A stretch of DNA of 64,000 nucleotides from NCBI RefSeq assembly GCF_013315695.1, contig NZ_CP054353.1; one strand, given 5' to 3'. Each line of letters opens with the position of its first letter. Within the stretch, counting starts at the first letter, position 1. Both the position numbers and the translations under genes were made by a program. The DNA is from Escherichia coli. Its GTDB lineage: Bacteria; Pseudomonadota; Gammaproteobacteria; Enterobacterales; Enterobacteriaceae. This document shows positions 10,836-17,282 of this stretch, piece by piece. The notes under the pieces are model-generated. The model saw only the letters and a list, made by a program, of their open reading frames with translations. It was not told the origin of the DNA and did no database searches.

Positions 10836-11414
10836 ATGAGTGAAAAAAGCATTGTTCAGGAAGCGCGGGATATTCAGCTGGCAATGGAATTGATCACCCT
10901 GGGCGCTCGTTTGCAGATGCTAGAAAGCGAAACACAGTTAAGTCGCGGACGTCTGATAAAACTCTATAAAGAACTGCGCGGAAGCCCACCGCCGAAAGGC
11001 ATGCTGCCATTCTCAACCGACTGGTTTATGACCTGGGAACAAAATGTTCATGCTTCGATGTTCTGTAATGCATGGCAGTTTTTACTGAAAACTGGCTTGT
11101 GTAATGGCGTTGATGCGGTGATCAAAGCCTACCGTTTATACCTTGAACAGTGCCCGCAAGCAGAAGAAGGACCGCTGCTGGCATTAACCCGTGCCTGGAC
11201 ATTGGTGCGGTTTGTTGAAAGTGGATTACTGCAACTTTCCAGCTGCAACTGCTGCGGCGGCAATTTTATTACCCACGCTCACCAGCCTGTTGGCAGCTTT
11301 GCCTGCAGCTTATGTCAGCCGCCATCCCGGGCAGTAAAAAGACGTAAACTTTCCCAGAATCCTGCCGATATTATCCCACAACTGCTGGATGAACAGAGAG
11401 TACAGGCTGTTTAA
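10836..11414 (+). CDS. flhC: flagellar master regulator FlhC
   Basis: 192 aa [27 protein letters not shown]...; zinc-binding Cys cluster near the C-terminus. Confidence 0.95.
11345..11371 (+). promoter_or_regulatory. sigma28 (FliA) promoter of the motAB-cheAW operon, inside the flhC 3' end
   Basis: TAAACTTT (11345-11352), 11-bp spacer, GCCGATAT (11364-11371); matches the TAAAGTTT-N11-GCCGATAA consensus. Confidence 0.7.
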
Positions 11415-11472
11415 CTGATACGGTGTGGCGAAACATTCCAGCAGCGGTAACGATGTACCGCTGCTTTTTTTT
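11379..11472 (+). ncRNA. motR: candidate MotR sRNA (motA 5' UTR-derived)
   Basis: About 94 nt between the sigma28 promoter and the intrinsic terminator at 11439-11472; coordinates approximate. Confidence 0.35.
11439..11472 (+). terminator. rho-independent terminator downstream of flhC
   Basis: Stem gcagcggta / taccgctgc followed by T8. Confidence 0.7.
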
Positions 11473-11540
11473 GCCCCTATCGCGTGTTAACGCCTGACGA
11501 CTGAACATCCTGTCATGGTCAACAGTGGAAGGATGATGTC

Positions 11541-11822
11541 GTGCTTATCTTATTAGGTTACCTGGTTGTTCTCGGTACAGTTTTCGGCGGTTATTTGATG
11601 ACCGGTGGAAGCCTTGGAGCACTCTATCAACCCGCTGAACTGGTGATTATTGCCGGTGCAGGGATTGGGTCGTTTATCGTCGGCAATAATGGCAAAGCGA
11701 TTAAAGGCACGCTGAAGGCGCTGCCGTTGCTGTTTCGTCGCTCCAAATACACCAAAGCAATGTATATGGATCTGCTGGCTCTGCTTTATCGGTTGATGGC
11801 GAAATCGCGGCAGATGGGGTAA
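11541..11822 (+). pseudogene. motA: motA 5' fragment (codons 1-93), interrupted by IS4
   Basis: GTG start, MLILLGYLVVLGTVFGGYLMTGG...AKSRQMG, then stop TAA formed by the first bases of IS4. Confidence 0.9.
11808..11819 (+). repeat. IS4 target-site duplication, left copy (cggcagatgggg)
   Basis: Identical 12-mer at 13246-13257 directly flanks the other IS4 end. Confidence 0.9.
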
Positions 11823-13245
11823 TGCCAGTCAGTTAAGCAACTGACTGGCTCTTTTTCGGGGCTGTGGGGTATTTCCAGGGCCTCTCCTTTACCACTCTCG
11901 GGAAGGCCCTTTCCCTTCTTGTCGGTAATTTCACAAGTTGTCCCATACTTGCAAGATCGCGCATCAGCTCCGGTATACGTCCCGGTGAAGCGCCCTGCAA
12001 TGTCATCAGCATTCTCATCACCATTCCGCATGATTCTGAGAAACTCAGTTGATTCGGCCAGTAACCTTTCAGATGTTCCGCCATTTTAATCATCTGATAT
12101 CTCACCAGATTATAAGCCAGTAAGACACCCCACAGCTCTTGCTCCACAAGCTCCGGTTTTTTACTTCTCAGCGTCAGCCTGCTCAGTTGCATCGTCTGTT
12201 TTATCTCCCTGTATCCCAGTTCGATTTCCCAGCGATGACTGTACAGATCCGCCATTTCTCCTCCGGGGAAGCGCATGGCGTCCGTCATCGACGTCAGCAG
12301 ATGGCAGACTTTTCCTTTGCGCGTCACGGTCAGCAGGCGGGCTGTCACTTCATTTCCCAGTCCCGGCCACTTTTTTCGTGCCTGCGGGCTGGTTTTCAGC
12401 TTCACCAGATGATCGCCTTTACCCAGTTTTCTGATCTCTTCATATTGCGCTCCCTTTCTGAGAGGTATCATCCAGTGGCGGTGTTCTCCCGCCAGGCTCC
12501 AGGCATTTAACAGTCCCAGTGAGTAATAACCTTTATCCATTAACGTCAGAGTGTTATCGCCGGTTTGTTCTATAAGTTGCTCAGCAAGCTCATTTTCGCT
12601 GTTCTTCATCGTGCCGAAGGCTGCAGCCGTCAGCAGATGGCTGGTCAGTTCCATCTGGCAGACCATTTTGACCTGCGGGTAGAGCGCCGGGTTCCCGGCA
12701 TGTGTCTGGCGGGGGAAGGCTGCATCGTTCTCTGGTGTATCCGGTGTGCGCCAGAACACACCATCGATGGCCAGCAGGGTCAGGCCGCACCAGTGCGGAT
12801 GCGGCGTGGCGTTATGCCAGAGCTGCGCTGTTTTCGTGAACACGCGGCGGACAGCCTCACTTCCCAGGCGCTGGCGGGCCTGAATAACGGCACTGGGGGC
12901 AACGAAGGGGCGATTGCCCGGCAGCATGATGTCCAGGCGATTCACAATCTGGTGAAGAGGTTCTTTACGCTCAAGCGCCATGCCAACAATACACCAGACC
13001 ATCATTTCGAGGGGAAGACGGCGCTTGCGTAGCGTTACAGTACCTGATTCGGCAAGGCAACGAGAGATGAGTTCGGGGTCGAGGTAATCCCCCAGAGAAG
13101 TCAGTGGGTTACGCAGAGAATCGTAACGGGATACCAGATCAAGAGCCTGTCCAATGTGCATAAAAAAATCCGGAAACAAGTGAGCGTTTCCGGATTCTTA
13201 CACAGCCACTGGATCGGTCAACTGATCCTTAACTGATCGGCATTA
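11820..13245 (-). mobile_element. insertion sequence IS4, complete, 1426 bp
   Basis: Imperfect terminal inverted repeats (left taatgccagtcagttaag, right-end reverse complement taatgccgatcagttaag, 16/18 match); one 442-aa transposase ORF; length equals the canonical IS4 size; flanked by 12-bp direct repeats. Confidence 0.92.
11833..13161 (-). CDS. insG: IS4 transposase InsG (DDE family)
   Basis: 442 aa from ATG 13161 ([48 protein letters not shown]...); track ORF starts at an upstream TTG (13179). Confidence 0.9.
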
Positions 13246-14789: not shown

Positions 14790-14793
14790 CAGC

Positions 14794-16758
14794 GTGAGCA
14801 TGGATATAAGCGATTTTTATCAGACATTTTTTGATGAAGCGGACGAACTGTTGGCTGATATGGAGCAGCATCTGCTGGTTTTGCAGCCGGAAGCGCCAGA
14901 TGCCGAACAATTGAATGCCATCTTTCGGGCTGCCCACTCGATCAAAGGAGGGGCAGGAACTTTTGGCTTCGGCGTTTTGCAGGAAACCACGCATCTGATG
15001 GAAAACCTGCTCGATGAAGCCAGACGAGGTGAGATGCAACTCAACACCGACATTATCAATCTGTTTTTGGAAACGAAGGACATCATGCAAGAACAGCTCG
15101 ACGCTTATAAACAGTCGCAAGAGCCGGATGCCGCCAGCTTCGATTATATCTGCCAGGCCTTGCGTCAACTGGCATTAGAAGCGAAAGGCGAAACGCCATC
15201 CGCAGTGACCCGATTAAGTGTGGTTGCCAAAAGTGAACCGCAAGATGAGCAGAGTCGCAGTCAGTTGCCGCGACGAATTATCCTTTCGCGCCTGAAGGCC
15301 GGCGAAGTCGACCTGCTGAAAGAAGAGCTGGGGCATCTGACAACGTTAACTGACGTGGTGAAAGGGGCGGATTCTCTCTCGGCAATATTACCGGGCGATA
15401 TCGCCGAAGATGACATCACAGCGGTACTCTGTTTTGTGATTGAAGCCGATCAGATTACCTTTGAAACAGTAGACGTCTCGCCAAAAATATCCACCCCACC
15501 AGTGCTTAAACTGGCAGCCGAACAAGCGCCAACCGGTCGCGTGGAGCGGGAAAAAACGACGCGCAGCAGTGAATCCACCAGCATCCGTGTAGCGGTAGAA
15601 AAGGTTGATCAATTAATTAACCTCGTCGGCGAGCTGGTTATCACCCAGTCCATGCTTGCCCAGCGTTCCAGCGAACTGGACCCGGTTAATCATGGTGATT
15701 TGATTACCAGCATGGGGCAGTTACAACGTAACGCCCGTGATTTGCAGGAATCAGTGATGTCGATTCGCATGATGCCGATGGAATATGTCTTTAGTCGCTA
15801 TCCCCGGCTGGTGCGTGATCTGGCGGGAAAACTCGGCAAGCAGGTAGAACTGACGCTGGTGGGCAGTTCCACCGAGCTCGACAAGAGCCTGATAGAACGC
15901 ATTATCGACCCGCTGACCCACCTGGTACGCAATAGCCTCGATCACGGTATTGAACTGCCAGAAAAACGGCTCGCCGCAGGTAAAAACAGCGTCGGAAATT
16001 TAATTCTGTCTGCCGAACATCAGGGCGGCAACATTTGCATTGAAGTGACCGACGATGGGGCGGGGCTAAACCGTGAGCGAATTCTGGCAAAAGCGGCCTC
16101 GCAAGGTTTGACTGTCAGCGAAAACATGAGCGACGACGAAGTCGCGATGCTGATATTTGCACCAGGCTTCTCCACGGCAGAGCAGGTCACCGACGTCTCC
16201 GGGCGTGGCGTCGGCATGGACGTCGTTAAACGTAATATCCAGGAGATGGGCGGTCATGTCGAGATCCAGTCGAAGCAGGGTACTGGCACTACGATCCGCA
16301 TTTTACTGCCGCTGACGCTGGCAATTCTTGACGGCATGTCCGTACGCGTTGCGGATGAAGTTTTCATTCTGCCGCTGAATGCTGTCATGGAATCACTGCA
16401 ACCCCGTGAAGCCGATCTGCATCCACTGGCTGGCGGCGAGCGGGTGCTGGAAGTGCGGGGTGAATATCTGCCTATCGTCGAACTGTGGAAAGTGTTCAAC
16501 GTCGCGGGCGCGAAAACCGAAGCCACCCAGGGAATTGTGGTGATCTTACAAAGTGGCGGTCGCCGCTACGCCTTGCTGGTGGATCAATTAATTGGTCAAC
16601 ACCAGGTTGTGGTTAAAAACCTTGAAAGTAACTATCGCAAAGTCCCCGGCATTTCTGCTGCGACCATTCTTGGCGACGGCAGCGTGGCACTGATTGTTGA
16701 TGTCTCCGCCTTGCAGGCGATAAACCGCGAACAACGTATGGCGAACACCGCCGCCTGA
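14794..16758 (+). CDS. cheA: chemotaxis histidine kinase CheA
   Basis: 654 aa from GTG 14794 ([20 protein letters not shown]...); internal ATG at 15085 corresponds to the CheA-short start (Met98); track ORF starts 18 codons upstream. Confidence 0.95.
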
Positions 16759-16778
16759 ATGAGTAAAAAGGTAACAAT

Positions 16779-17282
16779 ATGACCGGTATGACGAATGTAA
16801 CAAAGCTGGCCAGCGAGCCGTCAGGCCAGGAATTTCTGGTATTTACCCTTGGTGATGAAGAGTACGGTATTGATATTCTGAAAGTGCAGGAGATCCGTGG
16901 CTACGATCAGGTGACACGGATTGCGAACACGCCAGCGTTTATCAAAGGCGTCACGAATCTGCGCGGCGTTATTGTGCCGATTGTTGACTTACGAATTAAG
17001 TTCAGCCAGGTGGATGTGGACTATAACGACAACACGGTAGTTATCGTCCTGAATCTCGGACAGCGGGTGGTCGGCATCGTGGTTGACGGCGTCTCAGACG
17101 TGCTTTCATTGACGGCGGAGCAAATTCGTCCGGCACCGGAATTTGCCGTGACGCTTTCAACCGAATATCTCACAGGACTGGGCGCACTCGGCGACCGCAT
17201 GTTGATTCTGGTGAACATCGAAAAACTGCTGAACAGCGAAGAGATGGCGCTGTTAGATAGCGCGGCGTCAGAAGTGGCGTAA
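16779..17282 (+). CDS. cheW: chemotaxis coupling protein CheW
   Basis: 167 aa [33 protein letters not shown]... Confidence 0.95.

Follow-up and report, generated by a model that had tools for sequence, protein, structure and literature searches.

When an insertion sequence (IS) comes to rest in the first gene of an operon, is the damage confined to that gene or does it extend to the intact genes beyond it? The question is raised by a window of Escherichia coli DNA (the whole stretch analysed, 64,000 nt of contig NZ_CP054353.1, RefSeq assembly GCF_013315695.1), which comprises flagellar region II and its surroundings and in which motA, the promoter-proximal gene of the motAB-cheAW operon, is interrupted by IS4. 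A model's earlier interpretation of the letters and their open reading frames (ORFs), hereafter the sequence-only reading, had held a polar effect on motB, cheA and cheW to be plausible. It had the anatomy right, and the predicted stop signals described below would support such an effect, but it overlooked that motA is itself null and that flhB carries a premature stop. The account that we favour, with a probability of roughly three in four, is a recent simple transposition of IS4, in a human-associated E. coli lineage, that made motA null and on which intrinsic and Rho-dependent termination would remove most of the distal mRNA, on top of an older flhB nonsense mutation (W345*) and at a site that has been used repeatedly.

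The element is complete, measures 1,426 bp like each of ten other IS4 copies, and was inserted after codon 93 of motA. Its terminal inverted repeats have 19-nt arms that are 89% complementary, and it is flanked by a perfect 12-bp direct repeat, CGGCAGATGGGG, the duplication at the other copies being 12–14 bp long. Identity to features annotated as 'IS4-like element IS4 family transposase' was 99.0–99.6%. The transposase gene is intact, encodes 442 residues and runs antisense to the operon (13161 to 11833), as the sequence-only reading had it for a 1.4-kb IS4 between the promoter and motB; exactly this protein is widespread on record and contains the Pfam domains Nterm_IS4 (PF13006) and DDE_Tnp_1 (PF01609). 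Judged by its sequence, the element is assigned to IS4 by every feature tested, namely a length of about 1.4 kb with imperfect inverted repeats, a single 442-residue DDE ORF, a duplication within the 11–14 bp of the family and near-identity to the references. The terminal hairpin that the transposase transcript would meet on the minus strand (11820-11835 and leftwards) has no T-run, and this transcript could exit IS4 leftwards, antisense to the motA 5' fragment, the MotR small RNA and flhC.

First of all, and whatever downstream transcription does, the insertion is a motA null. The 5' fragment ends in K-S-R90-Q-M-G, followed by a TAA that IS4 supplies with its first three bases; the fragment keeps the first two transmembrane segments (TM1 and TM2), and an identical 93-residue product is assigned to Pfam MotA_N. 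The 3' fragment, from M92 onwards, holds E98, the rest of the cytoplasmic loop, TM3 and TM4, with Pfam MotA_ExbB on an identical 204-residue product. In the cytoplasmic loop of MotA, R90 and E98 contact the rotor. Because MotA is cut beyond TM2 and between these two residues, no functional stator is left, and the cell should therefore be paralysed (Mot-) regardless of downstream expression. Polarity is secondary since motA itself is destroyed; motility would be no further impaired if MotB, CheA and CheW were lost as well. An N-terminally truncated MotA had been thought translatable from an in-frame ATG at 13258. This ATG is present, as is an earlier one that had been missed (13252, inside the duplicated target); such a product is nevertheless unlikely to matter, because neither start codon is preceded by a Shine-Dalgarno sequence and TM1 and TM2 would be lacking.

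What reaches motB depends on where transcription begins. A sigma-28 motif scan of the window gave five matches where 0.56 would be expected, among them the motA promoter inside the 3' end of flhC, TAAACTTTCCCAGAATCCTGCCGATAT, which has two mismatches to TAAAGTTT-N11-GCCGATAA and is identical to K-12 in alignment. It is also letter-identical to the site '(flhC)motAB-cheAW' found in K-12 by chromatin immunoprecipitation sequencing (ChIP-seq) of FliA (Fitzgerald et al. 2014, PMC4183435). The promoter proposed by the sequence-only reading is thus the right one, and its description as the only recognisable promoter also holds: no further sigma-28-like site with up to three mismatches occurs from 11372 to the tar promoter, and the published FliA site table lists tar and then flhC/motA with nothing between (PMC4183435). 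On the plus strand no sigma-70-like site with 9 of 12 matches was found in 11200-14900, in a consensus scan that cannot exclude a promoter. That no other promoter suffices for the operon is best supported by a delta-flhC strain, which stays non-motile when complemented with flhC because the flhC-internal promoter is lost (PMC4183435). The downstream limit of any polar effect is marked by the promoter of tar-cheRBYZ, a perfect sigma-28 match that is also a listed FliA site (PMC4183435); these genes are outside the polar shadow and unaffected by IS4 because they have their own promoter.

Between the motA promoter and IS4, the MotR small RNA and motA 5' untranslated region are intact, with three single-nucleotide polymorphisms (SNPs) relative to K-12; the coordinates were obtained by transferring the K-12 motR annotation through the alignment. 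An Rfam 15 search of 9600-14000 returned no match, MotR included. The MotR terminator is predicted to fold with -17.3 kcal/mol and ends in U8, and both the biology of MotR and read-through of this terminator into the operon have been described (PMC10578931). Provided that sigma-28 is active, MotR production should continue. As regards the upstream flagellar genes, flhD and flhC are intact and encode proteins identical to those of relatives, and the uspC-flhD spacer (9704-10482) is free of IS elements; K-12 MG1655 has IS1H upstream of flhD.

The insertion lies in the promoter-proximal gene of a single-promoter operon, and the element carries features by which transcripts arriving from motA could be stopped. 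Four nucleotides inside IS4 is a terminator-like hairpin with an 11-bp stem (6 G-C), a 4-nt loop and TCTTTTT; it was top-ranked in the terminator-pattern scan, and 48 nt containing it fold with -19.9 kcal/mol (z = -3.5). On the minus strand this hairpin lacks a T-run, and it would therefore act, if at all, against read-in from outside. At the other end, a hairpin with a run of seven T (-22.8 kcal/mol on the minus strand) sits between a promoter-like site of the transposase (13221-13194) and the transposase ATG. With stop structures at both ends, read-in should be blocked in either orientation of IS4. The motA stop, moreover, is followed by ~1.4 kb of RNA that runs antisense to the transposase gene and that there is no reason to expect to be translated; its first ~640 nt are C-rich and G-poor (C/G ratio of 1.2–2.3 over 11820-12460), a composition typical of Rho entry sites.

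Together these features suggest the following course of events. Transcription would start at the sigma-28 promoter inside flhC, polymerase would pass the MotR terminator, and 93 codons of motA would be translated until the ribosome halted at the TAA supplied by IS4. Four bases into the element, polymerase would reach the 11-bp hairpin and its U-run, and what it went on to transcribe would be untranslated, C-rich and Rho-entry-like. Intrinsic and Rho-dependent termination, acting through the hairpin and the untranslated RNA, would then remove most of the motB-cheA-cheW mRNA, and no promoter-like sequence would restart transcription before tar. Strong polarity on motB-cheA-cheW would be the most likely outcome, a role for Rho being something that we infer from base composition only.

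Some observations tell against so complete a block. The U-run of the IS4 hairpin (UCUUUUU) is shorter than the U8 of the MotR terminator and is interrupted. Intrinsic termination in IS4 may be partial, because the U-run is weaker and because the MotR terminator, with a similar stem, is normally read through. Two weak sigma-70-like sites with 8 of 12 matches occur on the plus strand, at 12418 and 14681, the latter preceding cheA by ~90 nt. Insertions of IS4 classically have polar effects, as in the gal operon, although no source for this was found in the literature searched. Polarity might thus be leaky, leaving reduced but significant amounts of MotB, CheA and CheW, so that the real defect would be the loss of MotA only. 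We regard this as unlikely. In its favour are the weaker U-run, the Shine-Dalgarno sequence that motB has of its own, and the normal read-through of the MotR leader terminator, S10/NusB-dependent antitermination having been proposed for the operon (PMC10578931). The 1.4 kb of untranslated RNA beyond the stop codon, C-rich over the first ~640 nt, speaks against leakiness. So does general experience with E. coli, in which premature translation stops usually cause Rho-dependent polarity.

As the sequence-only reading had stated, motB, cheA and cheW are intact, and at the DNA level they do not differ from strain MSB1_4I, in which they are annotated as normal genes. The same reading had coupled motB translation to that of motA. 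The start codon of motB does overlap the motA stop (13864-13866) as ATGA, but since motB has its own Shine-Dalgarno sequence, GAGGA, 3 nt upstream of this codon, its translation may not be strictly coupled.

Expression of the motA 3' fragment, motB, cheA and cheW could in principle be restored by an outward promoter, carried by the IS, as the sequence-only reading had suggested, or formed as a hybrid with the flank. Such promoters are known for IS1, IS2, IS5 and IS10. In this window, however, none is visible in the sigma-70 and sigma-28 consensus scans: the 9-of-12 sigma-70-like class is empty throughout 11200-14900, the sole 8-of-12 site inside IS4 (12418) lies 800 bp from the exit, and there is no sigma-28-like site. 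Restoration by this route is therefore considered highly improbable.

The age of the insertion was examined by comparison with the complete genome of MSB1_4I, an E. coli from a human rectal swab that serves as a near-isogenic relative with an empty site. After removal of IS4 and one copy of the repeat, the window matched MSB1_4I without gaps over 9000-17400, with one SNP. Collinearity with that genome extends over all 64 kb of the window, IS4 being the only structural change. The insertion is very recent, since the two differ by only ~6 small differences in 62.5 kb.

A second lesion is older. Codon 345 of flhB (22559-23707) is changed from TGG to TGA (W345*), and the corresponding 'internal stop' is common to MSB1_4I and to AF3, a UK blood isolate, both of which have an intact motA. 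The relatives MS 21-1 and AF14 (99.9% identity) have an intact flhB without W345*. Because the stop is present in the empty-site genomes MSB1_4I and AF3, the order of events was flhB W345* first and motA::IS4 second, and motA::IS4 is a second hit in an already damaged flagellar system. If FlhB W345* disables export, the cell would retain FlgM, which would keep sigma-28 inhibited, and the motA promoter would be silent regardless of IS4.

From this follows a further alternative, in which polarity is moot: W345* would already block the hook-basal body, and IS4 would represent neutral decay in a non-flagellate lineage. FlhB is essential for flagellation (PMC7771051), and the stop is found both in the window and in two complete genomes whose motA is intact, whereas relatives a little further removed do not have it. 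The mutation, however, costs FlhB no more than its proline-rich C-terminal tail of 38 residues. Deletion of this tail in Shewanella lowers flagellation by only ~30%, and Salmonella truncations of it are fliK suppressors that still build filaments (PMC7771051). The truncated FlhB may thus still work, low-rate read-through of the TGA is possible, and the same IS4 insertion occurs together with a full-length FlhB in two of the loci described below. We consider it unlikely, if slightly less so than leaky polarity, that the flhB stop leaves the insertion without consequence.

The insertion is not confined to this genome. Exactly the same 93-residue MotA product was found on at least 84 contigs, and in the loci that could be read IS4 interrupts motA at precisely this base and is flanked by the same duplication, in both orientations. 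The orientation of the window is seen in L001-L004, L007, L008, L011, L015 and L017 and the opposite one in L005, L006, L012 and L013; L012 and L013 encode full-length FlhB of 382 residues. The carriers represent at least five to seven E. coli backgrounds; their flanks differ by 21–168 substitutions per 6.3 kb, and SNPs as near as 18 and 102 nt from the IS4 junction distinguish carriers from one another. At least two independent insertions have therefore occurred at this site, and five to seven are more likely. Spread of one allele by recombination was rejected as the sole explanation, given the two orientations and the differing SNPs near the junction; likewise, a K-12 or B laboratory origin of the other carriers was rejected, each differing from K-12 and REL606 by at least 15 substitutions. 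A search of 5,426 complete RefSeq E. coli genomes with the whole region and with junction probes for both orientations found motA::IS4 in none, and among JGI metagenome contigs nothing matched the junction pattern for both orientations. The allele, although recurrent, is rare, and it was not described in the literature searched.

A cluster of 95-residue MotA fragments (P0002) was considered as a second IS4 position and rejected, being made up of an S96* nonsense allele and of contigs that end there. The S96* change (TCG to TAG, positions 2786-2788 in L035-L037) lies three codons from the IS4 site and occurs in three contigs with differing flanking SNPs, one of them a 5.0-Mb chromosome. Two metagenome scaffolds, L010 (~1975-1985) and L014 (~1290-1300), contain no IS4 but were retrieved with the 204-residue fragment because of a 10-N gap with the duplicated motif GTATATGGA, ~50 nt upstream of the motA IS4 site; the gap is probably a scaffolding artefact.

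Why the same base should be hit was approached through the ten other copies (L018-L027), all from GCA_900448835.1. In all ten the target consists of an A-run, 3–4 nt, the 12–14-bp duplication, 3–4 nt and a T-run, with ~18 bp from A-run to T-run. The motA target reads AAAtcg[CGGCAGATGGGG]atgTTTT and is the sole AAA-N18/19-TTT in motA; scored with a matrix of half-sites derived from the ten copies, it reaches 6.1, the next best site in motA scoring 1.2. The target consensus of IS4 is AAA-N-TTT, for which no usable source was found in the literature searched. Independent hits thus share one position because it is the best IS4 target within motA. One result qualifies the idea of a favoured site, in that this ten-site, one-genome model places the motA site no higher than 57th of the distinct sites in 62.5 kb; target preference alone is accordingly not claimed as the cause of recurrence. 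It explains where in motA IS4 lands, not why motA is hit, which could reflect selection for loss of the stator or a bias arising because a protein look-up finds disrupted genes. The copies in L018-L027 are almost always centred in palindromes resembling intrinsic terminators, between convergent or tandem genes, which suggests that IS4 targets bidirectional terminators. Close relatives contain 16 IS4 matches per genome, and since K-12 presumably has a single copy, IS4 appears to have expanded, and is presumably active, in this lineage.

These comparisons also bear on whether the assembler could have misplaced IS4 into motA. IS copies commonly cause misassembly, and the arrangement occurs in no complete RefSeq genome; against this stand the perfect 12-bp duplication, the recurrence of both junctions in independent short-read and metagenome assemblies and the A-run/T-run architecture shared with ten other targets. 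An artefact is given almost no weight.

A broader proposal is possible, though tentative: codons 89-97 of motA would be a natural IS4 landing site, hit independently by several lineages, and a recurrent, host-selected route to cells that are flagellated but paralysed. If so, reversal by precise excision between the 12-bp repeats would be possible in principle, and either orientation would also shut off motB-cheA-cheW because IS4 has stop structures at both ends.

The features of the locus are collected in the table below. Gene order in the window is araFGH, otsBA, uspC, flhDC, the interrupted motA, motB, cheA, cheW, tar, a tap remnant, cheRBYZ, flhBAE, argS and onward. Of tap, only ~150 nt are left between tar and cheR (19134-19285), annotated as a pseudogene in four of the four close relatives examined; in K-12 and REL606 tap is complete, at 1.6 kb. 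A sigma-28-like site inside otsA, TGAAATTGCACCAGATCGAGCCGATAA (8113-8139, minus strand), is identical to the intragenic '(otsA)' FliA ChIP-seq site (PMC4183435).

Table. Positions of the features of the interrupted motA operon and of related sites, numbered from the first base of the window.
Feature	Position	Strand	Basis
Sigma-28 (FliA) class 3 promoter, motR-motAB-cheAW	11345..11371	+	Motif scan, ChIP-seq identity, K-12 alignment
MotR small RNA / motA 5' untranslated region, terminator 11440-11465	11378..11472	+	K-12 annotation transfer, terminator pattern, folding
motA 5' fragment, codons 1-93	11541..11822	+	ORF list, Pfam MotA_N
Target-site duplication, left copy CGGCAGATGGGG	11808..11819	.	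Repeat search
IS4, complete, 1,426 bp	11820..13245	-	Identity to annotated copies, inverted repeats, length
Terminator-like element that transcripts from motA would meet	11824..11856	+	Pattern scan, folding
IS4 transposase gene, 442 residues, intact	11833..13161	-	ORF, Pfam
Hairpin with T7 run that would stop read-in from the other end	13164..13199	-	Repeats, pattern scan, folding
Target-site duplication, right copy	13246..13257	.	Repeat search
motA 3' fragment, codons 92-295	13252..13866	+	ORF, Pfam MotA_ExbB
motB, intact, ATGA overlap with motA stop	13863..14789	+	ORF, MSB1_4I comparison
cheA, intact, 654 residues, GTG start	14794..16758	+	ORF, MSB1_4I comparison
cheW, intact, 167 residues, last gene of the operon	16779..17282	+	ORF, MSB1_4I comparison
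Sigma-28 promoter of tar-cheRBYZ	17369..17395	+	0 mismatches; FliA site in PMC4183435
Premature TGA in flhB (W345*)	23591..23593	+	ORF; 'internal stop' annotation in MSB1_4I and AF3

On its own, motA::IS4 is a routine loss-of-function allele that predicts a non-motile, non-chemotactic strain, which may still make flagellin and the MotR small RNA. It is relevant where H-typing is set against a motility phenotype and to studies that take intact motB, cheA and cheW ORFs as functional. The empty-site relative, the older flhB stop and the carriers of both orientations form a natural series in which the polarity of IS4 could be studied by orientation, and which would allow testing whether stator loss is selected in human-associated E. 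coli.

Compared with known systems, motA::IS4 most resembles the classical polar insertions of IS1, IS2 and IS4 in gal and lac, with which it shares an IS in a promoter-proximal gene, a translation stop at the IS border, a terminator-like structure followed by untranslated RNA, and intact distal genes without a recognisable promoter of their own. It differs in its target, the sigma-28-dependent motAB-cheAW operon, in its occurrence in a natural isolate and in that polarity is predicted from sequence alone. IS-mediated flagellar decay in non-motile E. coli and Shigella likewise proceeds by stepwise lesions, represented here by flhB W345*, motA::IS4 and the older tap deletion; unlike in those decayed lineages, the region II genes that were read, flhDC among them, are intact except for motA, flhB and the tap remnant, and the event is very recent, at ~6 differences from the empty-site relative. 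Insertions of IS1 and IS5 upstream of flhDC in K-12 are a further case in which an IS landing in region II alters motility, but they activate the master operon, whereas motA::IS4 eliminates a motor gene and is expected to turn off the distal genes. As a target of IS4, the motA site shares with others the 12-bp duplication (11–14 bp in the family), the A-run and T-run ~18 bp apart and use in both orientations; most other targets, however, are intergenic intrinsic-terminator hairpins, whereas the motA site lies in coding sequence and is no palindrome. The allele is a new one of a textbook kind, and nothing about it exceeds the textbook except that one site has been reused by IS4 in both orientations.

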